This document shows, in pieces, positions 8,187 to 63,809 of a stretch of DNA of 64,000 nt; positions within the stretch are counted from its first letter, which is position 1, and each line of letters begins with the position of its first letter. The stretch is from Botryllus schlosseri (lineage: Eukaryota). The notes under the pieces are model-generated. The model was not told the origin of the DNA. It did no database searches and saw only the letters and a list, made by a program, of their open reading frames with translations. A program made the translations under genes and the position numbers. The stretch is taken from NCBI GenBank assembly GCA_051294905.1, contig CM119371.1, forward strand, positions 39,806,001 through 39,870,000. The letters run 5' to 3'.

Positions 8187-11100
8187 ATGTATATTTGTAT
8201 TGTATAATATTGTATGCATGTTTTATGAGCAGACCTGATATGGCATGATAGCTTCTACTATACTGTTATACTGTTATTATCGGCAAACGATTTGCCGATG
8301 TGATATCAGAACTCACTGTGTTGACCTATTGCTAATTAGATGGGCGCTTTCTTGAGGACTTGAAATCATCCCCTGCGTGCTAATTCATGTCTACATGCTC
8401 ACTCAAGAATTGCCGCGTTCCCAGTAATGCCGCTTGTTACCGAAGGCAGTCAGTGACGAAGTGCTTCTACTTTTTGAAGCACACAAGTCATTTTCGACTA
8501 CTTCTAGTACTTACTCAAGTAAAACTAATATTTCGCTACTTCCACTTCTACTTCATATTAGTTTGCGACTTACATACTTTCCACTATTTACAGTTTGTGA
8601 ATTAAAATGATTATATTATTCCAATAGAGTAAGAGAGAGATAGAGAATGAGACTAAAAAAATTTAGCGACGTTTTTTGCCGAGTATCAAAAATAATTTAC
8701 CTATCACAAAAGTTTAAAAAGTTCGGAATGTTTGTCGTGCTTCGAGCGAAATAGATATGGAGCGACAAGAATGTTTTCATGGAGCTGTTGGTCAGTATCA
8801 TTTAGGTAGGTTCATTTCATAACACACTTTCGCCTGTATGACACGTTTCATCACAGTAAATTTGGCTCAGAAAATATATTCGGAACTATCTCATCGTATT
8901 CTTGCATTCTAGCCACACATCGAGTGCTCAAACAGCGAAAAAGTGGTCCTTGACTTTTTAGCACTAGACCCTTGAGCGGCAACCACCGTTGAAACCGTCT
9001 GAAACCTGTTTTACATATTGTAGTTGAATTTCTCTTCATGCACGGTATCATTACAGTTGGTTTTTTAATCAATCTTCGTTCTTTTGTCCGAGACACATAC
9101 GCATAGAAGTGTAATGTTACGAAGTAAATTGGAACGTGAATGGCATTTTACAATCTCCCGTATTGTTGTTTCACGTAACAATCATCGCACAAATCGGTAA
9201 TACTGTTTCTGATACAACTCCATGTCGCTTTTCGCCTTAACTATGGGCCTTATAATACTGCGGAGGGCATAATTCCATGACATTATCTGAAATCGAGCTC
9301 TGGGGTAAACGAAAGTTGAGAGTCGCTTCTTTGAAGTAAAGCCATCATTTGCATCCCACGATGCGGTCGAATACGAATCCAGCTCTCTGTACCATTCGAA
9401 GGGCCCAGTTTCCGGCTTTTGACAGCCAACGACAGCGTATTTATGGCTGCTTATCACAGCTACCTACTTAGTTGATTACTTGAGTACATTTTAGCTTCGC
9501 TACTCCTAATTCTACTTGAAGAAGTTTTAGGATGCTTAAAAAAGGGCTACTTTTACTCGTACTTTAGTAAATTTTAGCTTCGCTACTTCTACTCCTACTT
9601 GACTAGATTACTTGACTGCATTGACCACCTCTGATTGTTACTCGCACAGTGCATTTCGCAGTGGCATGTGGCGTTGGAACACGCAACTGCGACATAATTT
9701 GTAACAAATGCTGATGCCCATATTCTGAATTCATTTTAGTTGCCAATAAGCTTGATCGCCAACGAACTGACAGGCATCCAGCACGCCAATATTGAACTTC
9801 AGTCAATTGTGTATTTAGTAGAAAGCTGATTTCTATGTTTAGGTCTCGACATTCGCTGAGCGTTCCTAGTGCTGCTGCTACTCTAGATAACTCACCATTT
9901 CACTGAATTCGATTGCATAGCTCGGTATTAATGACACGTGCGAATATGAAAACATCATATCAATGGTAAATGTACGTCTTGTGGATGAATGCAAATGGCT
10001 TGTAGCAAAATGCCTTCTCTAGCGACTATGACATCACGGATCATGAGTGATTGTGACGTCACAAGTCGCCGCATACCCACATAATATCACGCCTACACTT
10101 CTTAGTACGCAACTAAATCTTAGAATCGAACTCACTTCCCAATCCAAATTTCCAGATAGCGACACAATCTGACGATGTCTAAGTAATGAACGTAGTGCTG
10201 TTGCCGAGAAATCGTTTCCATACAATTTCACTTCCTTCACCTAAAACGATGGAAACATGATATGAAGTGTTGACAGAAACTAAGTGTGAAAGTCAGTCTG
10301 AAATCAAATCATCAGCGTCAAAATACAAAGTAACTGAGCCGTAATCAATTCGCTTTACTATTGAAGGATCTTCGATGTAGCCGACATTACAAAGTGATAT
10401 CTTAAAGGTGGTGATATCAGCGACTGTCAGTGAATAAAATATCCATTGCGAGTGTTTGCGACTAATGTCATGTAGTGATATCATGCCATTCATTACCATT
10501 ATATTTGGAATAATTTAAAAATTCATATTCGCTGCGCCTTTAAATTCCAAGAATAGGAGTCGATTCCAGATTTACATAATTGTGCGTGTGAGCAGCAATC
10601 CCTTGCATATTGAACGATATGAAAAAATGGATCACATTGGAGATTACTGAAGAAATTTCGACCAACATTCATGAGAAAATGATTTGACAGGAGTAATATT
10701 ATTATTATACAAATACCCGTATGTGTTCCGAAAATATTCAAATAATTCTGCGAAGATGGAAAGCCAATATTTACATTTAAATCATTTTATAAAGACACCA
10801 GAAAGATTATACACAAAATTTCTACGACCAAAGACGGAAAAATATAGATTCCTCCATGAAGGCAAACCAAAGACACTCAATTTCATCAAATTCACTGTTC
10901 TGACGCACAAGGACTGAGCTGGCGATGATCAACACTGTCGTTGATGCGTTACAAGACTATTGATAATACCAGGGGTCAGCAGTGTTGAGCCCGCCAATTG
11001 TTCCGCTCAGGTCCGGATTCAGTTGCACATGTAAAACGTTTGCAAGAAACCCAACCTGCTATGTCAGTGGTTCTCAAACCTTTTGGACACGCCCCCGTTG

Positions 11101-11773
11101 ATGGTAGTGAAAAATTCTGCGCCCCCTTATCGCCATATCAAAAAAATACTAAAAAGTGCAGCAAGAATACTTGCAATCCCAACGCATAGTCTGGTGGTAT
11201 GTAACGTTATGACTGTTGAGATACCATTAAAATATCAAATTGGGACTAAAGACCAGGGATGGCTGCTAACCTTTCCAGCCAAAGTGCAACAAGAGATTTA
11301 CGAACCATTGGGTGGGCCACTTGAAAATTGATGACCTGTTAGTAGTCGTCCAATAAGAGCGAACCGTATTAGGTAACGGTGAAAACAAGACTTATATTAC
11401 AATGCACCAAAATCGATAGCAATTATGTCATTAAAACCCAGTAATAGCCGCGCGGAGCGAGAAATTTATTCCAGTTATAAATGAATTCCGTCAATAATAA
11501 TGGTACTTGCATATATTGCTAGTCGCCTCTGTGTACCGCTAGACTCATTTGTCAAGGACTGGAATATTCAGGACGTGGACATATCAATATCTAAGATTTT
11601 AGCGAGCATGCGTCCATCATTTTGTGCCAAGGTTTCATCGCCAACAATCTTTCTGCGAGTGTCGACATGTAGACGCATGTTGGACGACACGTTCTCTCAT
11701 AATTGCAAATATAGCTAGACTCAATTCTGTAAATTGGGCGTATTATGAATTTTCAGGGGGGGTACCAAGATAC

Positions 11774-13258
11774 CAGGGTTGTAATGACTCGATTCGAGCC
11801 ACGATTTTCTGATGACTCGACTTGACTCCAGTCATTTTCTCAAAATATGGAAATGACTCGACTCGAGTCTATCTGTGTATTGACTGGTCTTGGACTCGAG
11901 TCATTGCTCATTACTAGAACCAAGTCATATGACCCGAGACTCAGACGGCCAAGACCGACATTTTTATTGTAATTTCCAAGAATAGTTGAGTAACCACACT
12001 ATTAGGATTTCGTTTTGGTACTGGTACTTGAAAAAGGGAGGAAAATTAGTATATTATATATACGAACTACCGTAATTTTCCATGTACAATGCGCAAAATT
12101 TTCACGATTTTTTGCCCTAAAATCGGGGGGTGCGTATTATACATGGGAACAACACGCTTGAAAAAAATCTCCCTCGATAAAAAAACTTGAAATCACACCT
12201 TTCTTCATTCGTCATGTTGGTTTTCAATCACGCATCACTTTCAGCCGTCGCGCGTAGTAATTACAGGGAAGCGTGTATCCAATTACCGAGTGTCGTGTGC
12301 GAAAGCAGGCGATCTCCTGCTGAGTTGTTTTGCAGTTTGTACGCGAGCGAAATTAGGTCACTAATAGACAATCGTGCGCGGCACGGCAATTCTCGCCAAT
12401 TCATCGCGTCAACGACAGGCCCGAACAATCCCATACGCAATTTATACATACACAAGAGATCATGTGCGAGAGATAGAATCGCTTGCGTAATCAGTCGCAT
12501 CTCCAACAGATCTGTTGCGCATGACATAACCGTTAGCCTAGGCACAATCGCATCTATAATAGGCATCGTGCGCAAGATGTCGATTGTCGGTTCGTTGGCC
12601 TAAACTAACTTGCCGCGGGCTTCGCAGGCTTTGGCTGCTATCTACTATCGTTAAGTGACAATACCGTTAATTGTATAATGATTACCAATCGCATCTGTAA
12701 AAGGTCTCCTCGTGCTCAAGATGTCGTGTCGCTAGCCTGAACTATCGCGCCGCTCGCCGAGCAGGCTTTGGCTGCTATCTACTATCGTTTAAAGACAATC
12801 CCGCTAATTGTATAATGATTAGCGATCGTTGTGTAATGATTGTTCAAGAGTGACATCGCAAAACAGAATGACATCGTATACGAAATCGGAACTATTCATG
12901 TACTGAAATGCAGGCTGCGTACTATACAAGGGTACAGGCTTTTCCCCAGAATTTACATGCTATTTTAGGGGTGCATATTATACATGGGGGCGTACTATAC
13001 TTGGAAAATTACGGTATTTGATATCACCAAAACAGAGTTATAAAAAGTGGGTTCATCAAGACTTAAACTGGAAACTGAGCAGTCAACACAACGACTTGGA
13101 CTCGGGCTCGGGTCATATTTACCATGACTCGGACTCGACCCTCTGCTCGCTGACTTGACTCGGTGGTGAATTGAAAATGACTCGACTTGACTCGAGTCAA
13201 AACTATAAACGTGAGATTGTCTTGTGACTCGGAGCCTTGTGACTTTGTTACAAGCCTG
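11774..13258 (+). mobile_element. hAT-type MITE (GACTCGAGTC family) carrying a nested pogo-type MITE
   Basis: CAGGGTTGTAA...TTACAAGCCTG; perfect TSD CAAGATAC. Confidence 0.92.
12070..13014 (+). mobile_element. Tc1/mariner-pogo-type MITE nested in the hAT MITE
   Basis: TA|CCGTAATTTTCC...GGAAAATTACGG|TA; the empty site (aactattcgatatcacc) is visible in the 6219-6811 copy. Confidence 0.9.
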
Positions 13259-13820
13259 CAAGATACTAAAAGCAAGTAATAGAGATACAATAAATCACAC
13301 TAAGCGCTGAGACAAATATCTACTTCGTGGTCATAAAAAACATCTATGAAAAATGTGGCAGGGCACTACCTACGCCAATGCGTTGGAATTGATATTTTAG
13401 TTAGCAACATCTCGTATTCTGCAGTCAGGCTAATCAAGTTTATGGTTGGCCTTGCAAGTTCAAAATAAATTTCTTGGGTAATTCATTTTTTGATATTATA
13501 AATAATATTGAGGATTACCTCGCGGGTCACTCAAAGCCTTCTCGCAGGACACATGTTGGCCATCCCTGCTATCAGCTAGCTAAATCGAGCGAAACAAGAA
13601 AAAATTCTAGTTGATGTCTAAAATAATCATTTTCAATGGTAGCACGTATAGCATTAACATATTTTAGCGATTTTGGTGTCTAATATCTTATGTTTACCCA
13701 CTTCTGGCCATAAGCGAAAACAAAAACCCATGGCGCGGCTTCGTTCTAAGCCACTTTGATTTAAACCCTCATTTCCAAAATTCAAAAGGCATGTTAAAAT
13801 CATGGCATATGGCATGAGCC

Positions 13821-15137
13821 CAGGGGCGTATCCAGAGCGCGAAAAAGGGGGGGGGTTTGCGTTACGAAATTGGCTATTGTGACGTCATCATTACGATCAC
13901 TCGTCTCCACGCCCTGGCGAATAATTAATACATTATAGTTTAATATTAAACAGAGATTTGCGGTGAGTGGGAGATGTACGAATACGATACGGACATTGCC
14001 TGAAAATCGCATTTCTTTTATGGTCTGATTGAAAGAAATTCGTAAATGCTCACATTTAGTCATGAGCCGGCAAATGCCGCCCGTCTTCAAGCGCCTAGTT
14101 CCGGTCAGAGATGCGCGATTTTGTTGGGTTTTGACGATATTATGCGCACGGTCGGTAGTATCGCAGCGGACGAACAAGCGAGGAATAGGGCGGTAGCATA
14201 AACGAGGGCGATCGCCACAGAGAGGTGTGGTGTGAACAGTGTACGTCGTACACGAATGTGTGCTTTTCGATGGCTTTACTAGCCGTACGGCTGAGCGTGT
14301 AGTACGCGCGAAGATAATTAGACCTTAATTGCAAGCACGCAAGTCAGTCAACTAATACAGAGTACACACTGGGATAATAACTTGATCGACAGAGAAACTT
14401 GTCAGCCGATATAATTAGGCTTTACCACTAGGCCTACTCAATTCTCCCGTTCAGCGACAACATAGGCCTGTATTTGGACGACAGCAAGCCACCTAACAAT
14501 CGGGAACGTGGATTGCTAGGCTTGTATTTTGAAATGTGAATGTCAATCCTAGGCCATTTCTCGCCAATAATCGCGAATACAATGTGGATTTGAGAATAGC
14601 ATTGTCGTTCTGGTGCCGTCGTGTCTGCGTCTCGCTGATCAATCAACACGCCGCCGCGAGCAATTCTTAATTAGGATTTCAAGGCGAGCAGGTGGAGCGA
14701 ATTCGCGAGCGATGTTGATTGCCGACAACTTCGTCTTTGCAATTACGTATCGCGTCGGCCAATTAGATTAGATTTTCCTAAAATGAGTCTCTCGTTTTAG
14801 CAAGGCGAGAGAGAAATCGAGGGAAGAAAGTTGAGAACGTCGGCGATTGCCACAGCTGAAATGTAGCTGAACAAGTGCAGAATTCGTATGGAATTAGCGA
14901 ATTATAATGACCTATTTTATCCTTTCGACTAATTCGGCGCATAATTCCAATATTTTGTAGGGGTCTTAGTCCCCTTAAATAACATTAAGACGCCATATTC
15001 GCCTTCTCATACGTAAAAACGAATATGTTAAACTAATAAATTAGCAAATATTAGAGGCTATATTTGACATCAATTTTTAGGATTTTGAAAAGGGGGGGGT
15101 TCCGACCCCCTAAAACCCCCCCCTGGATACGCCACTG
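13821..15137 (+). mobile_element. Non-autonomous hAT element, about 1.32 kb (copy 2)
   Basis: Same TIRs as 2491-3821; TSD catgagcc/tatgagcc. Confidence 0.92.
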
Positions 15138-15204
15138 TATGAGCCTATGAGAGGACATATTTTATTTCTCCATATTGTTGAGTCTTACTACGCTCTTTGT
15201 ACAG

Positions 15205-15824
15205 TAGGGGTGTTCAACCGTTCAAAGATAACATTTTTCTTCAAATTTCACTGGCTACTTGATAAATTGAAAGGTTGGCTAAAAAACTCAGCATACCAGA
15301 TTTGGTTTAATTCCAACCAGTAGTCGCATTGCTACAAGAGAAGAAAGATTTGGATTTATTATATAAAAATTAAATAATTTTTTTTTAATTTTCTGTTCAC
15401 CCCGTAACATTGTTAGGTTGTGTACAGAAACGGTACTCACCAAATTTCGCTCCATTGCAACCAGTGGAAGCGGATTTATTGCAGTTCAAAAATTTGGATA
15501 CGACTAAAATAGTAATCCGACCAACGTAAATATTATTTTAGTCAAATCCAAATAACGTCGCTCACACTGGTTGCAATTGAGCAAAATTTGTTGAACATTG
15601 TTTCTGTACACAACCTTACAATATCATGGGTTGAACAGAATATTTAATTTTTTTTTTATATATTTTCAGATAATAAATATCAAACTTTCTTCTCTTGTAG
15701 CAATGCGGCTACTGGTTGGAATGGAACGAAATTTGGTGTGCAGTTGTTCGTTAATTAGGTAACATATTAATTTTATCAAGTATCCAGTATGATTTGAGAA
15801 AAGAGTCATTTTTTAACACCCCTA
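15205..15824. mobile_element. Palindromic hAT-type MITE (TAGGGGTGTT family)
   Basis: TAGGGGTGTT...AACACCCCTA; TSD ttgtacag/ctgtacag. Confidence 0.88.
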
Positions 15825-16094
15825 CTGTACAGATGCTTGACAGACAAGCCATAAAAGTATTAGCTATGACACACGCAATCACCAGTCACTCCTACATGTC
15901 AAAATGTTCGACTTAATTTTTCCCGCGCATTCGATGTCGCTTCTGCATTTGTCGTGGGCAAACAAATCAAATCCCGTCATCATTGCAACGATATAACATA
16001 GTAGTTGTACAAGCCATAGTCGTTAAACCAGGGTATGGTGAGTATGCTGCAGTTATCCTGTATTGTTAGTAGGCCTAAACGGCATACTCGCAAT

Positions 16095-16564: not shown

Positions 16565-19500
16565 CAAATTTTCAGTAGCACAAATTCTCACAGTATTCGA
16601 TACATTTGAACGGGAACCTAGTGTATTCCAATTCATAAATAGCAACAGTTTTCCTACTGGTGTCGAAATTAATTATGGCAAGTACGGGGAAGCGGCGTAT
16701 TGAAATTTGTAGCGGTATTTGTTATATTGATCAAGGCTTTTGTACAGTTACAGAAGATTACGACCGAGCCCCGGCTGGTATCATGATTATACACCCTACA
16801 TTTATATATATGTTAATAAAAGGTGGTCAATATAGAAGGAGACGCGTGTTGAAATAGAAATGGTGATGCAGAATTATATACCGGTATACTCAAATACGAG
16901 TTGAAGCAGTGCTGTTCGAAGCAGCTCAAAACTATTTCAAGTGGAAGTGGAATTGCTGTCTTTGAAAACTACTCGAGTAAGTAAGTAGTTTTGAAAAGCA
17001 ATAATAAATACGCACTCATAGATCGCTAACACCTGGAAACTGAGAGCTGGTTCTGTGTTGCTACATCCCCAGGGAATTATTATGGCATAAGGATTCTCTT
17101 GCATCATGCGAAACAAATGATAGCTTTGCCATTGAAAAGTGGTTATGTACATGTTTTAACCCCAGTGCCCCCTTACAGAATATATGACGGTATGGCGCTT
17201 TTTATCGTAGTACAAGGCCCATAGTTAATGAGACGATGAACGATACGGACAAGTTGATTTAGATACTACATTCACGCTTTGATCGACTAGGAAGGAACCT
17301 GGAAATATGGAAGATCGTATAATTCCAAACATTTTGATGAGTGTTATTTACTATGACGAAACTGATATATGGGCGATGATGTGGTCTTAAAGTTTGCACA
17401 TACCACATAGGACAGCTACATAAATCATATTGACCGAGAGAGATATACATTTCGCAGAATCATGGTGAAAATTCCGAGAAAACAGCCACTGAATTTCATC
17501 GTCTTGATCTTATTCATTCTTTTATCGGATTATTAAAATACTTCTTCCTGATAAACTGTAAATAACGAAAAGTAAATAAGTAATTCACCAAATGAAACGA
17601 AGTTAAAGAGAAAGTAACTGGAAAGCGGATTTACTTGTGTAAGTAGGTACTGAAAGTAGAGGAAAACTACTCAAGTAGTTCCAAAAATGGGTAACGAAGG
17701 AAAGTAACAAAGTACCTCATTGCACAATGCATATTTTGACTCAAGTCAAATCACGGGGATTTTGAAAGTGACTCGATTCGAGTCAAGTCAAGTCGAGTCA
17801 CAATTTATAGCCAAGTTGATTTTTCACAGTATGAGGCATAATTGTGTTATTGCATTTTGATAGCTTTTTGAAAGTTGCCATTTATTTTGAATCGAGAGAC
17901 GATATGATGCAATGCACTAGCCATCTACACATCCGTGAGATCGGTGCCGATGGTTGACAAGTAACATGAATTCATAAGCTTCATTAAAATTTGGTTTCAA
18001 TTTTACAACAGGTTACTGACCACCTTAGGCGCTGAACCCTAATTTACCGAAGGTATGCGTGATCGATGACGGCATGAAGGGGCGACGTCATAATAGTCAG
18101 AATTGACGAATTAGCCGACTCGCAAACGTTCAATAGTCGGTTGTACATGGTGACAAAATTACGATACTATTAAGCAGACATCCTGCTGAATTGATTTCAA
18201 AATTTCCAAGGTAGCATCAATTTATTAGGTTTTAAGTACGTGCCCCAATCCCGATAATAATCTATCGCATTAGCTTCGTCGTGTTAATGAACTCGCACGT
18301 ATGATTATTATATATACTCGAAATCTACCGTAAGATAACTAGCGAGTCCGACTGTAGCCTACAGTGTACACTTGATTTGCAAGCTCACAATCTCCCATCA
18401 ATACGCGTTACGCTAACAGTCCGCCTCGGGAACAAATGAATATGCATTTTCGAAGACGGCTAATAAACCAAGTTCCATGCTCTGGACCCTGTTCAGTAGC
18501 GACAATAACTTTAAAGGAGCCTGCAACACATCTTCCGATCGTTGTGTTTTTGGTATTACCGCAAATAAAAGTCAATCACTCCGCATGATTCTGATTACAG
18601 CCAGTATGTATTTGAATTAATTCCGCCCGTGTTATATGTCTTGTGACAGTACGACATCACAATCACAGCAGACGCAATAGTACCGGCAGGCGAGCCAGAT
18701 ATCATATTTCTACACAGCAGGAGATGACAATTGCTACTTTTCAGGCCTATACAAATTAACATCATTCTAGTATTGAGGTTTCGGTCTTGTTGCCTCGCAT
18801 CGCATCTTCTAATTAGCCGCATTCGATCAATGTATTGCTGCTGATTTTCTCAAGTGGGCAGCAAGATTACGAAATACATTGCTGATTTCTAAATCGCACA
18901 ATTCACTAACTAGTCAAGCAGTTACATACCTAATGGAATTCTGGGTATGCGGCATACCGAAAAAAATTCCTAGCTATGCACGGCATACGAAGCATACCCG
19001 AGTCCAGTGCCTGTGCCGACCAAAATGAACACTGTTGGCCTACTCAATATTTTTTTAAATTTCACTGGTTATGTTATACAATTAATGTTTTGGCTAAAAC
19101 AGCGCTGTACACCAAATTTGGCTCAATTTCAACCAGTAGAAGTGAGGTTCTTGCTGTATAAAGTATTGAATTTATTATTTAAAAAGTAAAAATTAGAAAA
19201 ATTCGTATTTTTGCAGACTCTATAAAATAGTTAGACTGTCAGTAGAGATAATGCACACCAATTTTAGCTCAATTCCAACCAGTAGAAGTAAAGTTACTGC
19301 AGTAAAAAATTTTGGACTCTTTTTTTGAACTCTTTCAATAACTATTATTATAAAATCATAGAATTAGAAATTGAACAGTCCATAGAAGAGAGATATTTTG
19401 CCATTAGATTATTTTACTACTATAGTTAGGAGCTCCGATCACTTCGTTTGCGGTCAATTTATTTGTGATAGAGGAATGGAGGCCCGCCCAGTGAAATATA

Positions 19501-20100
19501 TGCAATATCCGTCATTTTGATTGACACCGTTACTTGATGACTTGAAATTGCCTCATAAATTTTGCTCCGAGTCACGAGTCAATCCACATTTCTAAACCCG
19601 CAAGTCAAGTCATTTTTGCAAAGCGACTCGAGTCAAGTTAAGTCATACGAAAAGAGTGACTCGAGTCCGACTTAATCGAGTCATCCCAACACTGTCACTT
19701 AATATACATAGCGAATACCAGGATCCGCACCACAGCCGAAAACGAACTAGGGCAGTCCATTAATATACACGGACGCAGTGACATCTGAACGCATGTGCCT
19801 GTAAACCGGCGCGATACCGTTCATTTTCAACCTTATCGGCTACAAAAATCCTAGAAGTGGGCCGTGCTACAAGTCGGCAGATACAGAAACATAATAAATA
19901 ATATCGGTCTGGCGTATGACCGATGCAGTCGAAAAATGTCATGATTACCCGAAAATGCAACAAACTCATCAGGTGGACCGAGCTTAATCGTGTGGGAAAA
20001 CACGCAAATTCGCATCCCTGCACAACGGCGACTTTACTTAATAATGATATAACTTGGCTGTGTCGATGTGTGAGATTCACTTATCCAATCGCACACGCAA
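16565..20100 (+). pseudogene. DCAF1: DCAF1/VprBP-like pseudogene, copy B (inverted; N-terminus to armadillo-like region)
   Basis: VAQILTVFDTFEREPSVF~MVPILTRMSQLIEKETEEY; ETNDSFAIEKWL~QTNDVLLTFEALKHL; GAIPFIFNLIGYKNP~GIKVLLSLLSIKMP. Nucleotide matches to the reverse complement of copy D (taaggattctcttgca near 17088 and 62410; gc(a/g)ggcgagccag near 18686 and 58680). Confidence 0.6.
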
Positions 20101-38365: not shown

Positions 38366-38373
38366 ATGCTCAG

Positions 38374-49401: not shown

Positions 49402-49924
49402 GATCGTGATTAGTAATCAGACAATCGAAACAACGTCGATTTCGGCACACTTGCGCTGAGAAACACCAGCTCTCTCGACCGGACGAACGAATTCGCGTTC
49501 TCCTTCTAATAGATTCTATTGGCGCTTATATTCGTTTACAAAATAATTCTGGAGTTAGTTCCGTGATAGTCTCTTTAACTGGAGGCTTGGAGCACGAAAT
49601 AGGACAGTGTCCTGGTGCATGTGTAATGAACAATTTGCATGCCTGCGAATTGAAAGTCATTCCTGCGCAAAGTGCGCAGATTCATTACTCTAACAAGGCT
49701 TTGCCAACTTTTGTCAGGAAATGCAACAATGCAGATCAAAGAATTGTCGCTATGTCAGACTTGGAACCCCATTGTGCAGTAGGCAAGTTGAGGAATTACT
49801 GATTACACGCGCGCTTTCTCGTTTGCTTTCATCTGTAGGCTACTAATTCTTGTCTGCTTTATACACTCGTATTCCCTCGATGTCACTGGTCAGTGTTTGC
49901 TTTGTTATCAATACGGCGCAAATA

Positions 49925-50198
49925 CAGTCCATCCTCAAGATTATACCGGACCCCGACTGACCTATCGATCTAGCTTTCCATGACATGCCGCCCTATTTCT
50001 TGTCGCTTCCTTTTCTATACTATCTTTCTTACTTTCATTCAGTGTGCATGCCTCCTCTTTACATCGCCTATAGGCCAAGGTGGGTGTCTGATTCCATATA
50101 GACAACTCATAGTCGCTTCGACATCCTCCTTTCTTTTCATTGTATCGCATTTTTGTGGTGTATTAATAAAATTGCTAATAAACCAATGATGATGATGA
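49925..50198 (+). mobile_element. ~270-bp retroposon-like element, intact copy
   Basis: Ends aataaaccaa(tga)n; four copies in the window. Confidence 0.75.

Positions 50199-51658: not shown

Positions 51659-51660
<2 letters not shown>

Positions 51661-51698
<38 letters not shown>
51661..51698. repeat. (AG)19 microsatellite
   Basis: Directly visible. Confidence 0.98.
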
Positions 51699-51706
<8 letters not shown>

Positions 51707-52044
51707 ATTGATTCGTCCAACCGAAACGAAAATAACATTGGCGCATGATATTATAACAAGATACTTAACGGTGTAGGACAGGGTGTAATCGATATGACTC
51801 TGGGTAGGGTCAACTAGTCTGATCACACCCTGCATTAACAGTGACAGATATTCTTTATAAATTTGGTTGCATCAGCGTTCCACCTACATATTCGAACAGC
51901 AGCAAAGCAGGATGGTGCTTACAGTCTATCTTCGGTGGATATGCGTCTAATCAGTCTCAATGACCTACGCGTGTATAATGGTTTGATAGAACCGCCGCTG
52001 TGTGGTTCATAGCAATGAAGGGATAAAATCCACATTTAATAGTA

Positions 52045-53302
52045 GGCTAATTCCATTATAATTCAACAGGGGCTGTAATGCATACCCTCAGAATTGTCCA
52101 ATATTTACAAATGTTATTATTTTTTGAATTCCAAGTTTATTAAAAAAAAAAAAATTGAAAAATGTTCAGCGGTTTAAAAGATATTGCGATTTAAAATCCT
52201 CTCGTCACTAGGTGGCGCTACTTTCAAAAATCTTTGAAATCGATATTTTTCGCTTAAATGATGGTAGAGAACCAATTAAAATGTCCATTAAACCAATTCT
52301 GGGGCCAAGGAATTCAATGAAACCAACTGTTTCGCCCTAAACTCAATGAAAAAAAAGTTACGAATGAAAAAAAATGGGGGGGACGGGCTTGAAAATGTCT
52401 GTAGGATACGGCCTACACAAAAAAAATTCTTGTGAAATGTGCTTTTAAGGAGTATGGTTGATAAAAAGCTTGATTTTAAATTTCACATTCATTCCACCGT
52501 GAAATATGCATTACATAAAAATTTCATGGTCCTAACCCATATCCCTGCTCATCGTAAATACTATTATGACCAGTCAGATATATCAATAAATTTATTCGTA
52601 TTGGTTTTCGAAATTTTTCAAGTAGATTTCGCGCGGAACCACCGCTTCAACAATAATAGAAGCAAGTAACAAAAGACAAATTTACAATTGATCTTGAAAT
52701 GTGGCAAGGATTCTACTTGAAAAATTTCGAAAACTAGAATAGAAAAATTTAATGATATATATGACTGGTGATAATAGTATTTACGGTGAGCAGGGATATG
52801 GGTTGGGACCATGAAATTTTTATGTAATGCATATTTCACGGTGGAATGAATGTGAAATTTAAAATCAAGCTTTTTATCAACCATACTCCTTAAAAGCACA
52901 TGTCACAAGATTTTTTTTTTGTGTAGGCCGTATCCTACAGACATTTTCAAGCCCGTCCCCCCCATTTTTTTTCATCCGTTACTTTTTTTTTCATTGAGTT
53001 TAGGGCGAAACAGTTGGTTTTCTTGAATTCCTTGGCCCCAGAATTGGTTAAATGGACATTTTAATTGGTTCTCCACCATCATTTACGCGAAAAATATCGA
53101 TTTGAAAGATTTTTGAAAGTAGCGCCACCTAGTGACGAGAGGATTTTAAATCGCAATATCTTTTGAACCACTGAACATTTTTCAATTTTTTTTTTTACTA
53201 AACTTGGAATTCGAAAAAGAACAACATATGTAAATATTGGACAATTCTGAAAGTATGCATTACAAATCTCAAAAAATTTGCTGAATTATAATGGAATTAG
53301 CC
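52045..53302. mobile_element. Long palindromic foldback MITE (~585-bp arms, ~80-bp spacer), apparent 4-bp TSD
   Basis: AGTA|GGCTAATTCCATTATAATTCA...TGAATTATAATGGAATTAGCC|AGTA; a partial older arm lies at about 60110-60618. Confidence 0.9.
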
Positions 53303-53809
53303 AGTAGTAACAATCTACGATGCTTGGAGCAGGCCTGAATCGATATATCTACGAAGGGTCTTATCCGCGCCGGCAGACCGGTAAGGCTCCAATATCACGC
53401 GGCTGGAAAGGTCCTCCCACCGATCCCCGGCTTGATTCGCGACACAGTGCGACAGTACGTTTTAATATTCTTGCAAATGCTAAAGTAACGTTTATATTAT
53501 TTTATTAAGTCCTGATCAGCATTCCCTTAATTCATCATTCTCCATACGCTCCGACCCATCACCGTGATTTTATAGGATATTTTGCCATCCTCCCAGAATA
53601 CAGTTTCACCGGACCATTGACGGGACCATACGGCTTTTCGCGTGTAACACAGCGACGTAGCATCAACCATGTTGTGCGGTATGAAGCCATTTCGGTGCTG
53701 TTATTTCAAAGTTGCTTGAAGTTACTTTACCGCGGTTCGACGATTATGCATTTTTATCATACTTTCATCGATTCAGTACACCACACGATTGTAATAAAAT
53801 GAAATTCTA

Positions 53810-53937
53810 GGATCCTTCAAAGGAGTCCATACGTATTGGAGTGGTGAGCTGCCGAAGGCAGCATAGCGACAAAAACTACGAGCTGCGCCCGCAAGGGCGC
53901 AGTATAGAGAAAGCGCGATGGATCCACCAAAGTTCTT
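53810..53937. other. Double-hairpin module (GCTGCC-GAA-GGCAGC; CTGCGCCC-GCAA-GGGCGCAG) bounded by GGATCC
   Basis: Perfect stems at 53848-53862 and 53883-53902; related module at about 22300-22432. Confidence 0.6.
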
Positions 53938-54751
53938 ATTGGAGTTTTAATCGTAGATATGTCGTTAAAATATAGTGATAAACAATACATTTGGTGTTTT
54001 AGCCAAGGGATCTTCCTCCGTAAGCTGTCATAGGCGGGCTTAACCCTACCGACAAAAATCCAAAGATTGGTATTATGGGTAGATATAATGTAATATAAAA
54101 TCTGGAAAAGTAGTGGATAAAAGGTAAGATGTAATTAAGTAAAGGAGTTGTAGTATAGATGTATGAAATAGTAGATATTCAACAAAAAGATATATTTATA
54201 TGTGTAAATATGCAACAAAACATATATAAATTCGTGAAAACTTAGTATAAGCAGAGGGAATGAATATAGTAAAATGGATATTGACTCATTCCAAAGCAAC
54301 TCTACCCTAGCACCTTACTTCGTCAGGGGTATAAAGGCGTGGGTAGGGTCTTAGCCTCTCCTTTTCTGTCGCAATTAACCGGTAATGCTTACACCCAATC
54401 GGTCGCCCACCCTAGGCCGAGAACAGTGGTTCCCAAAGTGCGCAATATCGCCGCTGGAACGAATTTGAGAGACAGTGGTCGAAAATGTTAGAACGTTCAG
54501 TTAATAAGTAAACTGGGTTTTTGCTAAGTACAATGTAGACGATTGATGTGATAGGAATGTCGAGGCTGATAGAAAAGCAGTTCAATGCTTGACTCATCCC
54601 AGCTCGCGGGGTGAAAATGATCAAATGTAACAAATTTGCTCTAAACCTGTAATTTGACCTAAGGTCAAAACCCATGTCGCGAGACGTCACTCAGAGGTTC
54701 TCAAACTTTCTAGAGCGCCACAAAAATCGGACTGTTATAACATCTCGCGAC

Positions 54752-55253
54752 TAGGGCTGGACAAGATTCGATTCCGAATCACGTAATATGCTTCGAGTCG
54801 AGTCGAGGATCGAGTATTAATCACTATGACGTCATTACAGAATGCAATATGTCTAAGTTCAAATACGTACCTTTTATGTGACCACAAATAATGTAATGCC
54901 TGCTTTCCATCACATTTAAGATACTTCGGTATTTATTCAACCATACCGATTTCATTGCACTTGGTAACAATGTTGTGGAATGATCATGACTGCGGAAATG
55001 TGCTATTCACAGTAACGTACATATCTTTGTACTATATGTTTCATTTGTTAAGATACGGGCAATTAAGGTTTCAATGCTTCAACAGTGAAAATCTGTGTCG
55101 AAACTATCATTCTCGTTGCTAATTTAACTTTCTGTGGCGATGAGGAGCGTATAATTTCATTACTCGAAAAATCGCATTTTACCTCTCGACTCGAATCATT
55201 AAAATTAATACTCGATTCAGATTCGAGTACTCGAATTATTGTGCCCAGCCCTA
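54752..55253 (+). mobile_element. hAT-type MITE, TAGGGCTGGGC family
   Basis: TAGGGCTGGAC...TGCCCAGCCCTA; perfect TSD CTCGCGAC. Confidence 0.92.
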
Positions 55254-55851
55254 CTCGCGACCCAAGCCTCACATTTCTCATTTTCTATTGCTATTGTTTT
55301 TTATTGTTGCGATCAAAGCTCTGTGGCTGCTTTAGTCGTTTCAAAATCCAATGTGTCTGGTGTGATAGCCAATTGATGAAACGCGCATCAAAGTTGTTAC
55401 GACAATATGGCCGGTAAGTCTGTTACTATCACGTGACTGTACGACTGCACGCTTTACTATTCGCACAAATGAATTATACCCCTTTCGTATCATTTGTTCA
55501 CAGGTCATCACTGATTCCGCAATGTGTGTTCAGTTTAGCACCAGTATGGTATCCAACTGCCTGCTGCTGAAATAGTGTTGCAGATTTTAAAACCAAATGT
55601 TTGTTTAGCCGAGTTGCGTGCATAAGCAACAACTTTCAGTAGCAATAATAGGGCCTACTCGCTATTATAACATGGAAAGACTTGTACACACTACCCTGGT
55701 TGAATGCCAACTAACTAACAATTGTTGAATACTCATATAGTTTTACTTGCGTATTTCGAAAACTGAGTAGTTCTAGTTGTAATGTAGGTATAGTCTCGAA
55801 TTTGTAATTTTCGGAACTTGGCTGTTGTGTAAAGTATGTTTGCATCAATAC

Positions 55852-56119
55852 TAGTCAGGGGTCACGTTTACCGGAACACCAACTCTCATTTCGATCTCGC
55901 CTTCATACACATACCACCTCTTTTTGTCACCTGTCCTTTTTATTATCTTCCTTTCTTTTCATTTAGTGTGTATGCCCACTTTTTACATAGCCTTGGCCTG
56001 GTGGAAGTCTGACTTCAAAGACTACTCCAAGTCGTTGCGACGCCTTCCTATCTTTTCATTGCATCGCAGTCTTGTGGTGGATTGAAATGATGAAATAGTT
56101 ATTAATAAATTGAATTGAA
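55852..56119 (+). mobile_element. ~270-bp retroposon-like element, diverged copy
   Basis: Homologous to 49925-50198; tail aataaattgaattgaa. Confidence 0.65.
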
Positions 56120-58850
56120 CCTACATAAATGAAATATGCAAACAAACTGCGCAAATTAGCCGCTATGCCACAGCATCGGCCTCTACTTTCGAAAATGCCT
56201 CGTAATCATATTGTCAATAATCTGCTTTTGTGCTGATTGAAAGCAGTAACTCCCGAACAACGATACTAAAAGCATGGTGCTCCTCGCCAAAATCTACCAT
56301 TACAAACAACTTGCTCAAAAACTTTACATGCGGTACATTTTCTTTTCACGTGTCTTCGACATCGTTATAGCTACTTGTACTCCACTCGGAATCGAAGCCG
56401 TTACACTTCTCGTGTATCAACGATGACTCCTTTGCATCTTGGGTAGCACTCGAAACTAACACTATTATATTTCCTCAGACTTACACCATTGAATAGCAGT
56501 GAGATCTGTATTGAACCAAATCAACGATAACGATTTGTAACGATCGAGTTAACATGACAAGACATCACGCAGCAGATCTAGTTGCCGAGTCCGGATCAAA
56601 TCAGAATTCACCATTCATATACTTTTCCGTCCGTATTCGCCCGAATATTCACCATACCAACTGAGCGATCTTTTGGATCTGTCTCCTTCATCATTTTCAC
56701 TCGGCTACGTTACGGTCCCAATCGTCCAAAGCGAGAGCGCACACTTGTTGTTTTACAGAGATAAAACCCAACTGTTCGTAAATCGACGAGTCGGAAGTGC
56801 GGAAAAAATACATCAAACCTGGCCGCTCTTCGGTGGCAATCTTCGTTGGCTCGTGGAGCACATAACACTCAGGCTACGATTGATAAGCAATTGGCATTGA
56901 TCGAGAGCAGGTACCGACTGAATCAATTTAAAATCTCTCATATCCCAAACTTCAGTGTTTATGATCACTTCCAAACCATTTGACGGAATACACTGCTGAC
57001 GGCATGGTTGAACTCCTCAAATCTATATACAGGTAACGTCTGGTGCTTTCGGACATCCCAGAAACACCCGTCGCTTAGGACTAACCGGTCGTCATACGAA
57101 AACGTGGCGCGTTTTTTTGGTAGCAACGCGAGTGGTTGTCTTCTATATAGGTATAAGCACCCGCGTCATTTCCGTAGGTGTTGATAGCCGTGCCAGTGTT
57201 GAGTCGAAGATAATTGCTTGGGTTGAAACACTCGTGACGACTATTTTGTCTTGCACGGTCTTGGAAAATTCGACGTATTCAATACTGTCAAAGTTACCTT
57301 TATGTCGGACGTTTTGTCCATAGCTAAAAGAATGCAGTTGTGGAAGCACCAGTTGGACCATAGGGTCAGCATCACGCCTCCGGCGTACGAGGGTTCGATG
57401 CTAATAACGGCCGAATCGAAAACTCCTGTCTTGATGCGATCTTCAAAGTTTGACGCTCTGGGGAAGTGAAAATTTCCAGCACTGTCTCCGAGAATCAGTT
57501 CGCAATGGTCATCATGACTGAACGCAACAGACATGAAGCGCGAATTTCGATCCCTGGCAGGCCGGATCTCCCCAGCAGGCCTGAATTGGCTGTAGATCAT
57601 TCTCAATTCGTGCCTCATACCGCCCCATTCAGGATAAACCCCCTGTCGATCACAGTGTCGTTTTCGGATGTTGATCGATGCTTCAATTTTGTTCATAAGC
57701 TTGGAGCAACGGTGGCGAATGAATAGAGAAAACGGGGGCATAGGTGCTACCGGATTTCGACTTTTGGAGTGTTTGTGATTGCTGCATTCCTCGATGAGAG
57801 AATTGAGAGTAACACACCGAGCGATATCATTTTCTGCAATAAACCTTTTGCTAGTTTCTAATTTTTTCACATATTGATCCATGAATAAAAAGTTATCATC
57901 TGCATCTGGAAAAGCCTCAACCCAAAGTGTCCTGCGAGGATCCGACAAAACAGACAAATATAAATAATCAGCAGAAAGTCCTCATAGTCTCCGAGGCAAC
58001 ATTACTTGTCATCACATTCTTCCAGTAAGCGTCGAGTGTAATTGCTCTTCTCGTTACGATTCTTTCCAAGAGTAACTTCACTTCGTTGCAAAACTTGACG
58101 TGTAGCTGTTTGCTGTCTTTGCGAATTGGCTTCAGGATAGCTTCATGTATTTTGCTGGTCAACACGTGAAGCTTTGGTGAGATCTCACGCAGTGGACGGT
58201 ATTCGGCAAATCTTATGAGCGCTTTACAAGCAAAGTAACGGGTTTCATCTGCCGTACGTACCGGCTTCGTGACACCTAACAAAGATAGCAGGGTGTTCAA
58301 GCCATCTGCCTGCCGAATGAGTTTCTTTAACTTCACGTTTCTTCTTGTTACATCATGGTGCAGCATGCACTTTGAAAGGTTCACGTCCGGATGCATAATA
58401 GTGCTGATAACAAGATACGATATCTCACATATCCTCCACAGTCATATCTTTCAAAATCTGGCAGTAGTCCACATTCCAGACAGCTTGATCGTCCCACACT
58501 TTGGAAGACAAGAGAATAGCACCTGAACACAAAATCGACCAAATTACCAGCTATAAATAGTCAATCAAATGGACCAAGTTATCATAATTAAATAAGGGAA
58601 AGCAAAAATCGTGATATAGAGAATATATAATGAAACACATTCTCATTCATAGCATATTGCCACATTGTAAAGACCTGGCTCGCCCGCACAAACTACCAAT
58701 GTTGTTTCGTTGAAGGTTAACTAAATACCGTTTTTTGAGTGGTTCTAGTTCTAGTTGCGTGTTTTGAAATAGATTTGTTCCAGGTCTTTTTCTTTAAAAA
58801 AAGGAATTAGTTGCGGACCAACTAGAAAGCCATCGTTAGGCATAATCATT

Positions 58851-59312
58851 AAGGCGATTTTTTCTTTACACGTTGAAATTATGTCAAAATTGTAGCGTTA
58901 GGTCAAAATATGAACTTTCTTTCTCTATTCTTGACAAGATACTTAGTAGGGCATACACTTTCTACCCGATAATGGAGGAAAATATATTTTGTTGTGCTAC
59001 AAAATTTTCTCATTGTTCCTACCATAATGCGTAATTTAACTACTGGAATTCTTCATATGGCTAGATTTTGTTGAAATGATATTTTTTGATGTAAAAATTT
59101 GCCAGTTTTTAGGGCAAATTTTTTTTTTGTCAGGCTGAAGCACTTCGATAGGACAGGCATTTCCAACCAGAAATGAAGATATAAGTAGTAAAATTCTAAC
59201 TTTATGTGGGAAAACCCCAAATTTGACTACGTTAGGTCAAATTTGGTCAAAATTAAGATTCTTAAGGTAAAAAATGTCAAAATTCTGATTTTTTAGGTGA
59301 AAAAATCGCCTA
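58851..59312. mobile_element. MITE of the AGGCGATTTTTT/TTTGACCT family inserted in copy D
   Basis: aggcgattttt ... aaaaatcgccta inverted ends; related to 29088-29400. Confidence 0.65.
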
Positions 59313-59714
59313 CTAATGACAATCGTGCAGTTAACGAGTGCACACACCTAGCACGATACGCTTCAATTCCCAGGACATAAAATAATATCCGGGTATGCTA
59401 ATAACCTTTTTAAATAAACCTGAAAAGAGGAAGAAGCAAGTCACTAATGGCACCAATAATCTATCAAAGGATCATTGGCAACGTAGAGAAGCAATCGATA
59501 CAATAAAGAGCTGATTTGAAGTTTAAATATAAAAACTGTGTATGGGGGTGGGATATAGGCGCATATATATTGATGTATATAATTTTCCGCTGATTAAAAT
59601 ATGTAATGTTTGAATGGATGGGGACTGGGGAATATTAATAAGACAATATGAGAGAAAATCATTTTAATATACTGGCGTTTGTCTCATTCTTGATGAAGTA
59701 GCGGTGTGCTTATT

Positions 59715-61331
59715 GGGACTGTTCAAAAATAACATTTTTTTCAAATGTTACGGCCCACTTAATAAAACTGTTGGATTGCCTGAATAAAACCACGCTGCAA
59801 ACCAATTTTGGCAAAATCCAACCAATAGAAGCATTGCTATATAAGAAAAAGTATTATATTTATTTAATAAAGATCAATATAAAAATTACTGGCAACCCCA
59901 TGAAATTGTTAGGTTGCATGAAGAAAAAATGTACAACAAGTTTGGCTTAATTCCAACCAGTAAAAGCAAAGTTATTAGAGTACAAAATTTTCGGATTTGT
60001 AAAAAATAGTATTTACAGTGGAATAGTTTTCAATTATCTACTATGGATCTTTCAGATTATTCATGGCTTATAATAGTATTTACAGTGAACAGCTGGTCTG
60101 TGCTGCTCATCGTAAATACTATTTCAAGCAATCAATAATTGAGATTTCATGAAGGAATAGATGGCACCTCCTAAATCCTATTTTATATCAACCATACTGC
60201 TTCAAAGTACATTTTGCAATATTTTTTGTTTTGTGGAAACGGAACACCACATTGATTTTCAAGTCCCCCCCCCCACGGCTTTATATCCTCGGTAACATTT
60301 TTCCATCGAGTTTAGAGCAAAAAAGTTGATTTTTTCCAATTCCTTGGTCCCAGAATTGTATAATTAGACATTCTAATTGGTTCTCCACCATCAATAAAGA
60401 AAAAAAATATCGATTTTAAAGATTTTTGCATGCAGCGCCACCTAGTGACAAGAATCGCATTTTGAATCGCATTATCTTTTGAACAGTTGGAAAATTTTCA
60501 AAATTTTTTTCAATCTACTTAGAATTCAAAAAAGAACAACATTTGAAAATATTTGACAATTCTGAGGGCATGCATTACAAATTTCAAAAAATTTGCTTAA
60601 TTATAATGGAATGAGTCTCCTTTTGGTTGGAATTGAGACAAATTTGTTGTGTTTCGCTTTTTCAGACAACCTGACAATTTTGTGAGGTTAGCCAGCAGGG
60701 TTGTAATGACTCGAGTCATGACTGGATTCGAGTCACGATTTTCTGATGACTCGACTAGAGTCGAGTCATTTTCTCAAAATACGGAAATGACTCAACTTGA
60801 GTCAATTTGTGTGTTGACTCGACTTGCAATCGAGTCATTGCGCATGACTTGAACCAAGTCCTATGACTTGATACTCACACCGTCACCTCAAGACCGACAT
60901 TTCATTTTGATTTTGAGGAATAGTAAAATAACCACACTATTGGGATTTCATCTATCGGTACTGGTACTTGATAATGTGACCAGAAAATGCTAAAAGTGGG
61001 TTTAACAAGACTTTACCTTGAAACTGAGCAGTCAACACAATGACTCGGACTCGACCCTCTGCTCTCTGACTTGGACTCAAACTTGCCTCGGTGGTGAATT
61101 GAAAATGACTCAAGTCGAGTCAAAACTATAAAAGTGAGATTGACTTGCGGCTCGGAGCCTTGTGACTTGGTTAAAACCCTGGTAGCCAGTAAAATTTAGG
61201 AAATATTTAGGGCTGTTTTTCCACAGGTTTCTTCTTATATAGCAATGCGTCCATGGGTTGAAATAGAGCCAAAATTGGATCTCAATTTTCATCAAGCAGC
61301 CAGTAAAATTATTAAAATTTGAACAGCCTTA
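59715..61331. mobile_element. Degenerate TAGGG..TTCAAAAA-family MITE with nested foldback arm and GACTCGAGTC MITE
   Basis: Left arm 59715-60010; right-arm pieces 60620-60695 and 61182-61331. Confidence 0.6.
60696..61181 (+). mobile_element. hAT-type MITE, GACTCGAGTC family
   Basis: CAGGGTTGTAA...TTAAAACCCTG; TSD ttagccag/gtagccag. Confidence 0.9.
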
Positions 61332-61777
61332 TTGCAGCATGTCTTATAAATAAATAATACATGAAATCAGATAAAAATACACCTAATTACTTCTACTGTT
61401 ACCGGAGAAATGATTTTAATCACTTCAAGCGTTTCATTGTTTCAGGAATTCAATTTTATCGGTAATTGATGACAAGACGAATCGACTTGACAACGAGTTC
61501 TGTCACAGAGGATTGGTAAGTGAGCTAGAGCAAACGAAGTAGTCTCCCAGGAATTAAAACTATTAGATCTGCTATCGCCTCATCAGTGGGCTGATAGAAA
61601 TCTGAATAATATATTCATATTGAAATCAGCCCAAATATATTTACGGCTGACAATCAATCCCGGGGGTAATCGTTAAGACCTCGTAGAGATTTCAAAAGAA
61701 GTTTGTAGCTTATATCAACAATCGTGATGTCATATTTAGCGACACGATTGTTGATGCACAAAGTTCTTTCAAAATCC

Positions 61778-62281
61778 CAGGGTAGTAACCAAGTCACAAG
61801 TCAATCTCACTTTTATAGTTTTGACTCGAGTCATTTTCAATTCACTGCCGAGTCAAGTCCGAGTCCAAGTCAGCTAGCCGAGGGTCGAGTCCGAGTCATG
61901 GTATTATGACGAGTCTGACTCCAAGTCATTGTGTTGAATGCTCGATTCCCAGTTAACGTCTTGTTAAACCCACTGTTGTAACTGTTTTGGCAACATCGAA
62001 TGGTTCGCATCTATAATATACTAATTTTCCTCACTTTTAGCAGTTTCTGGTCGTATTTTCAAGTACCGGTACCAGTACCAACAGACAAGATATGAATGGT
62101 GTGGTTATTTAACTTTTCTTCGATATTACAATGAAATGTCGGTCTTATTTGTTTGAGTCTCGAGTCATATCCTTGGTTCGAGTCATGCGCAATGACTCGA
62201 GTCCAAGTCGAGTCAATACACAAATTGACTCGAGTCAAGTCGAGTCGTCGGAAAATCGTGACTCAAGTCATTACAACCCTG
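61778..62281 (-). mobile_element. hAT-type MITE, GACTCGAGTC family, inserted in copy D coding sequence
   Basis: CAGGGTAGTAA...TTACAACCCTG; perfect TSD CAAAATCC. Confidence 0.92.
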
Positions 62282-62651
62282 CAAAATCCCATCTAGTCAC
62301 CGACGATCAACCCCCTGACGAGTGTCAGCCGAAAATATTCCGATTCATTTAAATAAGAATACACTATTCAATAGTATGGTACCGCATGTCGAAGTTCTGT
62401 TGGCTGCCTGCAAGAGAATCCTTACCAAAGTAACTATTGTACATCCCGCAGTCAATTGCGCCGCACTAAATAACGTCCTGATGAAGCGATAAATATGCCG
62501 ATGCTCCGGCTCTCACTTGTCGTAATCCGACAGCACATGATCGCACTGAAATGAAGATCGAAAAAACGCGGTTTGTAAGTCTTGGTATCGTATTATTGAA
62601 TCAAGCATTGGCAGTTTACTCGCAAACATTGTTGGTCGTCAAAACACATCC

Positions 62652-63546
62652 CAGACTTGGGCCACAAATTTTCAGATTTTCTATATGAGATAGAATTATT
62701 GCTGTGTACACTGTACAGCCTTTATCCAAATTGGACTCGAATTAGAATTATTGCCACACGGTTTATTCCAAATTAGAATATTCGCTGCACAAGTTTATTC
62801 TAAATTTGACAAGAATTAGAATTGTAGCCACACAGTTTATTCCAAATTTGATTGAAACTAAGAATAATAGTTGCACAGTTTTTTTTCAAAATTAAACTAG
62901 AATTAGAATTATAGCCACACATGCTAGTCCAAATTAGATTAGAATTATAGCAAGAATTTTTTCAAATCAGATTAGAATTAGGATTATAACTATATTTTTC
63001 CAAATTACGTTGGAATTGAAATTGTGGCTACGGTTTATTCCTAATTAGATTAAAATTAGAATAATAGCTACGCAGTTTATTTTCTAAGTTTGATTAGAAC
63101 TAGAATTATAGCTAACATTTTTTTCAAATTACATTACAATGAAAATTGTGGCTAAAGTTTATTCCAAATTAGATTAAAATTAGAATAATAGCTATACAGT
63201 GTTTATCTAATTAGACTAGAATTACAATTATCGCTAGTTTTTCCTTCAAATTAAGTAAGGATTAAAATTATGGCTACAGTTTTTTCCACATTCGAATTAC
63301 CTCCACAAAAACTTGTAAATTGAATGGAGTTTGTTGATATCAAATCAGAGGCACGAGAATTGCAAATGTTAGTGTACAGAAAACTCGGCGCGATTTGCAG
63401 TGTACAGTAAGTCTGTAGCAGTTTCAGGTAAACCAGAAATTAGGTCAATATCAGAATTACAATTAGATCGTAGAAAGATTTTTCAAATTAAACTAGAATT
63501 AGAATGATGGCATCTGGCTTTAAAATTAAGTAGTTGTCCAAGTTTG
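62652..63546. mobile_element. Satellite-bearing TIR element (AATTAG repeats)
   Basis: CAGACTTGGGC...GTCCAAGTTTG enclosing ~40-45 bp degenerate repeats like those at 1-410; no TSD seen. Confidence 0.7.
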
Positions 63547-63809
63547 CTGCTAACGATCTTGATATATGTAAAAATTTATTTCGGGTTTACAGATTACTGG
63601 CGCCGGACATAGTACAAGTCCTCAAACCATACCATGAACTATTACAAATCGAAAATATCTCACTGTCAAAGGATGCTTTTTTTCGTCGAAAATTACCTTA
63701 GTCTTCTTTCCACTGTCCCATTTTTCGATAAGGTGATAAACGGCTAATGCCACGCTGTATGGACAGAAAATACGGGTGGCAACGATATTGGATAACGTAA
63801 TAAGTTCCA

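Follow-up and report, generated by a model that had tools for sequence, protein, structure and literature searches.

The 64,000-nt stretch of the genome of the ascidian Botryllus schlosseri analyzed in this work (G000:C1:39806001-39870000; the whole stretch is referred to below as the window) contains one sequence derived from a gene of the DCAF1/VprBP type. DCAF1 is a substrate receptor of the CUL4-DDB1 ubiquitin ligase (CRL4); it is usually single-copy and conserved, and in vertebrates it is hijacked by viruses (by the lentiviral Vpr/Vpx). An initial annotation had proposed that at least nine decayed DCAF1/VprBP-like genes are arranged in tandem between positions 9065 and 63760 of the window, in segments designated A to I. 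Only one of them, copy D, was recovered. The minus-strand interval 56364-58383 is very probably a nonfunctional relic of an intronless DCAF1-like gene, comprising its 3′ half and ca. 340 bp of 3′ flank. Judged from its sequence, D is an ordinary truncated, frameshifted pseudogene, and a tandem array of nine decayed DCAF1 genes is absent from the window.

The window is part of a 41.8 Mb contig, C1, of an assembly of 495.5 Mb in 219 contigs. Its GC content is ca. 31-44% per 2 kb, and it contains only 12 stop-to-stop open reading frames (ORFs) of at least 120 amino acids (aa). The longest and the third-longest of these (246 and 157 aa) are neighbours on the minus strand and belong to D. A word-index search among longer proteins with the 246-aa piece, too insensitive for this purpose, found no homologue; homologues were found with the intact paralog as query and by an exhaustive HMMER search, from which 36 long DCAF1 homologues were taken as queries. 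Together with five intact DCAF1 paralogs of the same genome (described below and designated by contig: C12, C1 at 17.78 Mb, C15, C3 and C11), these made 41 protein queries for tblastn. Protein P0001 (27 matched stretches) was rejected as DCAF1, being a low-complexity repeat protein, and left out of the query sets; P0002 (18 matched stretches in the HMMER search) was likewise dropped. A family hidden Markov model (HMM) was built from the five paralogs and proteins P0003-P0005 and run with hmmsearch --max against the six-frame translation of the window, and a DNA profile of the five paralog coding sequences (CDS) was run on the window with nhmmer --max. The reversed window sequence served as the null control.

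All these searches converged on one place. Each of the 36 homologues matched inside 56.6-58.5 kb (104 high-scoring segment pairs, HSPs); the one HSP outside had an E value of 0.53. Searches with the five paralogs, which matched D with E values down to 3e-149, gave no match at E ≤ 1e-3 in the window outside 56703-58421 on the minus strand. Domains found on D by the family HMM covered 56703-58333 and profile positions 666-1257, and outside D hmmsearch reported a single domain with an E value of 4. The DNA profile gave one match, 58384-56692, the next best having an E value of 0.06. Profile positions 1-665, which correspond to the N-terminal helical, armadillo-like half of the family, had no match anywhere in the window. 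As can be seen from these results and from the matches to PDB entries given below, DCAF1 similarity of D runs on the minus strand from 58383-58421 down to 56675-56703, and the coding-derived part was placed at 56675-58383. The initial annotation had drawn D from 56615 to 63760; the part at ca. 56675-58421 stands, while for the remainder, from 58450 to 63760, the best E value among the 41 queries was 1.8.

The coding part of D corresponds to nt ca. 1908/1924-3735 of the C12 paralog CDS, i.e., to the region of human DCAF1 residues ca. 724-1393. The 246-aa open piece (57241-57981, minus strand) matches residues 1001-1177 of human DCAF1 (PDB 7v7b; E 3.6e-19). In the 157-aa piece (57968-58441, minus strand), residues 37-131 match human residues 724-819 (same entry; E 4.7e-12), and the first ca. 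20 codons, located above 58383, are not DCAF1-derived. When the DNA sequences are aligned, D and the C12 paralog have 78% identity over 1726 bp (CDS nt 1924-3640 of C12). Similarity continues beyond the C12 stop codon for 345 bp at 76% identity and ends at window position 56364; the interval 56364-56674 (minus strand), 76% identical to positions 5799-6133 of the C12 locus (L009), derives from the 3′ flank, probably the 3′ untranslated region, of a parent-type paralog.

Only the C-terminal half of the protein is represented in D, and its reading frame is interrupted. Relative to the C12 frame, the sequence of D is shifted by ca. nine indels, has lost 21 nt in frame at one place and contains one in-frame stop; a deletion of 68 nt is present at window position 56702. 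Relics of both WDxR motifs, which in DCAF1 matter for DDB1 binding, can be read in D (WDVR at ca. 57060 and WDMR at ca. 56947), in different frames. Neither the end of the 3′ homology nor the DNA upstream of the 5′ end of D showed a poly(A) tract. Since the parent paralogs are themselves intronless, the lack of introns in D does not distinguish a processed from a nonprocessed origin.

The eight other segments had been said to hold DCAF1-like peptides. In none of them did tblastn, the family HMM or nhmmer reveal anything above the reversed control. With the 41 queries, the best E values were 1.0 for segment A (9065-16060), 4.1 for B (16565-20100, claimed on the plus strand), 2.3 for C (20880-22727), 0.14 for E (27780-28760), 0.67 for F (29500-43940), 3.9 for G (45300-48222), 1.6 for H (48328-53760) and 5.0 for I (54470-56555). 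The reversed window gave E values of 0.034 and 0.12, better than any of these. The claimed peptides had been described as colinear when read through stops and frameshifts, which we mimicked by colinear chaining of weak HSPs at E ≤ 100. Chain scores in the eight segments and in the remainder of D ranged from 55 to 197 bits, compared to 67-166 bits in the reversed control; the core of D, with 596 bits versus 105 in the control, was the sole region to stand out. Peptides of this sort can thus arise from noise, a point of caution for any reading through stops and frameshifts, as reversed sequence chains equally well. Overall, no significant colinear DCAF1 match was found outside 56.6-58.5 kb, and the specific interpretation of the initial annotation therefore fails.

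The weak match in segment E lies at 27931-28083 on the minus strand, where N-terminal residues ca. 27-83 of three paralogs align with E values of 0.14-2.9 (61 residues aligned at 36% identity, 14 gaps). It was seen by neither the family HMM nor the DNA profile and falls inside the null range, and was rejected as a DCAF1 relic.

Recurrence of one protein region, around the motif LKQTND, in most segments had been taken as a sign of paralogy. This motif occurs exactly once in the six frames of the window (43752-43769, minus strand), outside any DCAF1-like sequence, and has a sole one-mismatch variant, LKQTNH (46897-46914, minus strand). The two sites have 22 of 24 nt in common over a 24-nt stretch, and their flanks show no homology. 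The tetrapeptide LKQT was found in none of the five paralogs, in none of P0003-P0005 and not in the neighbouring reverse-transcriptase ORF, which was checked alongside the paralogs. The intervals 9-56 kb and 58.4-63.8 kb consist of repeat-rich noncoding DNA devoid of DCAF1 content.

The annotation had also called for a search for intact paralogs elsewhere in the genome, and here it was borne out. With the 246-aa piece of D, 19 matches were obtained, among them five long open loci and several broken copies on C1; searches with the full-length ascidian-type proteins P0004 and P0081 returned the identical set of loci and revealed no separate multi-exon DCAF1 gene. The five long loci lie in five different places (C12, C1 at 17.78 Mb, C15, C3 and C11). 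Their open frames, 1214-1302 aa with no internal stop, yield intronless ORFs of 1196-1255 aa when counted from the start methionine. The C12 protein is colinear with residues 9-1393 of human DCAF1 (E 1.7e-166), and its nearest named relatives are ascidian proteins, from Styela clava (35% identity) and then Phallusia, Clavelina and Ciona savignyi, in a range of 29-36%. Both WDxR motifs are kept in all five paralogs, whose proteins end shortly after the propeller. We consider the five loci to be full-length, intronless DCAF1 homologues on these sequence features. A Pfam search of the intact paralogs returned no family, the Pfam set used having no DCAF1 models.

In a protein tree of 19 rows (LG+C20), the five paralogs and P0005 form a single clade (support 100/100) nested in ascidian DCAF1. 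This clade is sister to P0003 and P0081, followed by Styela with P0082, the other ascidians and the vertebrates. Pairwise amino acid identity among the paralogs is 51-66%, and pairwise ratios of nonsynonymous to synonymous substitution rates (dN/dS) are 0.34-0.58 by NG86 and 0.43-0.76 by YN00, a level that would be high for DCAF1. Homology among the paralog loci ends ca. 50-80 nt upstream of the ATG and ca. 300 nt past the stop codon. Since homology spans approximately the extent of an mRNA, the loci are dispersed and introns are missing, spread of the paralogs by retroposition is suggested.

One family member, the C3 paralog (positions 1248-7376 of locus L012, C3:36544500-36553500), is split close to its 3′ end: 2.3 kb of inserted DNA lie between the sequences that correspond to residues 1-1138 and to residues 1125-1212 (C12 numbering). 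Within the insertion, an open reverse-transcriptase frame of 700 aa runs in the opposite direction (PF00078, E 8.5e-35). The last ca. 88 codons, displaced by the insertion, have kept their open frame; the insertion may have disrupted the gene very recently or may represent a new intron. Apart from the five long paralogs and the seven broken copies described below, the genome searches found three small DCAF1 fragments. One, at C12:4259107-4259721, is an isolated N-terminal DCAF1-like fragment (residues ca. 6-211) contained in a 283-aa open frame, and it lies upstream of the intact C12 paralog at a distance of 26 kb; another is a C-terminal fragment at C1:36444596-36444874; the third, also C-terminal (C3:36545753-36545962), is the displaced end of the C3 paralog.

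The claim of a lineage-specific DCAF1 expansion with dead members thus holds on the scale of the genome, with five paralogs and seven dead copies, and does not hold as an array in the window. DCAF1 being normally single and conserved, five diverged intronless paralogs with a trail of dead copies are of some interest. It is possible, if doubtful, that in this ascidian the usual single DCAF1 has been replaced by five dispersed, intronless paralogs that evolve fast in protein sequence and turn over, which could reflect genetic conflict and would make D its debris; signs of turnover are the member split by a retrotransposon, the seven truncated dead copies and the three small fragments. Should the paralogs prove to be expressed and subject to diversifying selection, they would provide a nonvertebrate system in which to study the causes of diversification in a CRL4 substrate receptor. 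In full-text literature searches, judged by the beginnings of abstracts, no report of a DCAF1 expansion in ascidians or tunicates was found; the family, most of which lies outside the window, is of mild novelty. D itself, a truncated pseudogene of a routine sort in DNA that is duplicated and rich in repeats, is of little importance.

The broken copies on C1 were compared using 9.9 kb of sequence around each of the six located outside the window and 60 kb more around the one at 39.45 Mb. All seven copies (26.787, 39.450, 39.600, 39.760, 39.863 (D), 40.027 and 40.699 Mb) are on the minus strand, and six of them cluster at 39.45-40.70 Mb, at spacings of 100-670 kb, in the terminal 2.4 Mb of C1. 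In a maximum likelihood DNA tree they are monophyletic (100/100) and sister to the C12 paralog (90/92), and D, with 78-80% DNA identity to it, descends from the lineage of that intact paralog. Two subclades, each supported at 100/100, are resolved. Group 1 comprises D and the copies at 39.450, 26.787 and 40.699 Mb, which start at C12 CDS nt ca. 1908-1924; group 2 comprises the copies at 39.600, 39.760 and 40.027 Mb, which start at nt 1716. Members of group 1 have in common deletions of 11 nt at 1971, 1 nt at 3229 and 21 nt at 2493. Members of group 2 have in common an insertion of 1 nt at 2479 and a deletion of 3 nt at 2693. Five of the seven copies have lost 1 nt at 2373. D and the 39.450 Mb copy are 95% identical in DNA sequence; the corresponding values are 85-87% for D and group 2 and 80% for D and C12. 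Since lesions are common within each group, duplication came after disablement in each of them. The 5′ half of the gene is absent from all seven copies. Birth and death of working genes, as put forward in the initial annotation, does not fit these data; rather, the dead copies appear to have multiplied after death.

Several observations weigh against this reading. Among the dead copies, pairwise dN/dS lies at 0.50-0.82 and thus short of 1, a possible sign that some constraint acted once they had been duplicated. Bias in the estimator or in mutation is a likelier cause, since pairs of copies with common frameshifts also give ca. 0.50. No disabling mutation is common to all seven copies, and the death of the ancestor of both groups therefore rests on the absent 5′ half and on parsimony. 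The 5′ ends differ between the groups (1716 versus ca. 1908). Finally, the ends of the copies showed no poly(A) tract, and their lack of introns says nothing on how the first partial copy arose, since the parent genes have none.

The DNA around the copies bears on how they spread. D is carried by a younger segmental-duplication block, 55805-64000, which is colinear with and 88-96% identical to the C1 regions at 39.45, 40.70 and 26.79 Mb, is broken by small indels and repeats and reaches the window end. The noncoding flanks of D are 92% identical to the 39.45 Mb locus over 55805-60346 and 61750-64000, 90-96% identical to the 40.70 Mb locus over 55788-61462 and 88% identical to the 26.79 Mb locus over 55805-60998. 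An older, patchy continuation at 46139-55361 is colinear with the 39.42-39.43 Mb region in five blocks of 75-88% identity. Duplicated noncoding DNA around D and its closest relatives is colinear over at least 8 kb and, in patches, over ca. 18 kb (46139-64000). The upstream flank of D, 58384-59852, is found again 4-10 kb upstream of two group 2 copies. This flank pattern points firmly to segmental duplication with later insertions and not to independent insertions. We propose that one partial gene copy would have arisen already dead, with no start codon, N-terminal domain or promoter, and that segmental duplications affecting the distal 2.4 Mb of C1 would then have copied it passively, one copy being relocated to 26.79 Mb; D, by its sequence, would have no activity today.

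Part of the upstream flank of D, 58843-59303, is colinear with positions 7348-8136 of L011, which lie 180-970 bp upstream of the start codon of the C15 paralog (66 nt and 381 nt, ca. 75% identity). C15 is the sole paralog locus that matches this flank, and part of the match is a dispersed repeat also present at window positions 29082-29396; the flank may be an old promoter relic.

Transposition could be considered in place of segmental duplication, with the truncated DCAF1 fragment as the cargo of a transposable element, acquired by gene-fragment capture or by transduction by a long interspersed nuclear element (LINE). The ends of the unit are sharp and common to the three older copies (from C12 CDS nt 1716 to the 3′ flank), one copy is 13 Mb distant, at 26.79 Mb, and a LINE-like 3′ tail is found tail-to-tail 0-600 bp downstream of D and of the C11 and C3 paralogs. 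The copies, however, number only seven, on a single contig and a single strand, colinear homology of their flanks reaches over kilobases in either direction, terminal repeats flanking the unit were not observed, and there is no poly(A) at the truncation point, for which reason LINE 3′-transduction was rejected as the origin of the truncated copy. We therefore regard spread by transposition as unlikely. The LINE-like tails themselves lie at 55862-56113 beside D, at positions 6573-6744 of L013 (C11) and at positions 3458-3774 of L012 (C3); their placement may be due to chance, given the abundance of this repeat, or to old linkage.

Nor does it seem credible, beyond a very slight chance, that D is part of a working short, WD40-only DCAF1 variant whose frameshifts are small introns or assembly errors. 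The two fairly long open pieces, the readable WDxR motifs and the dN/dS below 1 between dead copies would be in line with such a gene. Yet the ca. nine frameshifting indels are 1-16 nt long, too short for introns, and are accompanied by a stop; several of them recur in paralogous copies elsewhere and therefore are not assembly errors; the two WDxR relics are in different frames; and a start region is missing. Equally slight is the chance that nine tandem DCAF1-like paralogs do exist at 9-64 kb and are too decayed for ORF detection. The weak segment E match and the fact that the window belongs to a larger cluster of dead DCAF1 copies can be cited for it. Against it, no E value below 0.1 was obtained in any of the eight segments, the segment E site was missed by both profiles, the reversed control gave better E values than the real segments and equal chain scores, and LKQTND is not a DCAF1 motif. 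We thus retain the reading of D as one member of a set of segmentally duplicated, already truncated pseudogenes.

The rest of the window contains many interspersed and local repeats and several tandem arrays. None of the 118 ORFs of at least 75 aa matched Pfam at the curated cut-off, and four weak matches with E values of 0.002-0.006 fell below it, a search that covers only non-DCAF1 domains, for instance those of transposon proteins; no Rfam family was found in the window. The LINE-like reverse-transcriptase element whose 3′ tail lies beside D on the plus strand has left further copies of this tail at 21152-21448, 31230-31386, 33101-33233 and 49920-50198. A high-copy interspersed repeat at 60042-60622 occurs on numerous contigs, where its copies frequently form inverted pairs. 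Another, at 43966-45100, lies in the territory claimed for segments F and G; 39 scored copies of it, among 8974 first-look candidates, were found elsewhere, on 15 contigs, at 88-93% identity.

An inverted-duplication complex pairs 33877-35192 with 38373-42007 at 92-97% identity (for example, 33877-34916 with 42007-40987 and 34909-35192 with 39752-39468). It encloses a 202/405-bp tandem array at 35333-36228 and looks like a young foldback-like structure. A direct duplication of 1.33 kb with 94% identity is present at 2490-3822 and 13820-15138, 11 kb apart. A family of ca. 40/120-bp AT-rich tandem repeats occupies both window ends (1-412 and 62712-63299) and is also found beside the 39.45 and 26.79 Mb copies. 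A diverged ca. 64-bp minisatellite at 24831-25600 is the source of spurious ORFs as long as 129 and 160 aa, which occur on both strands.

Compared to DCAF1/VprBP of other animals (human, PDB 7v7b and 7okq; Drosophila Mahjong), D matches human residues 724-819 and 1001-1177 and differs in that the whole N-terminal half is absent and the frame is shifted. The intact paralogs of this genome are closer to the known protein, that of C12 being colinear with the human one and possessing both WDxR motifs; unlike P0004 of Styela clava, they (ca. 1200-1255 aa, intronless) have no long acidic C-terminal tail. In place of the usual single DCAF1 gene, this genome has five. Among the ascidians, Styela clava, Phallusia, Clavelina and Ciona savignyi are each represented in the tree by one lineage (the two entries of Ciona savignyi being near-identical), whereas this genome contributes five diverged paralogs and dead copies. 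Duplicated (nonprocessed) pseudogenes are known to ride in segmental duplications of subtelomeric and pericentromeric regions of animal genomes. D resembles them in being a partial copy that has lesions in common with its relatives and sits in colinear duplicated noncoding DNA, and here, too, copies of graded age (95% to 85% identity) lie near a contig end; the departure from the usual case is that the parent gene is itself intronless.

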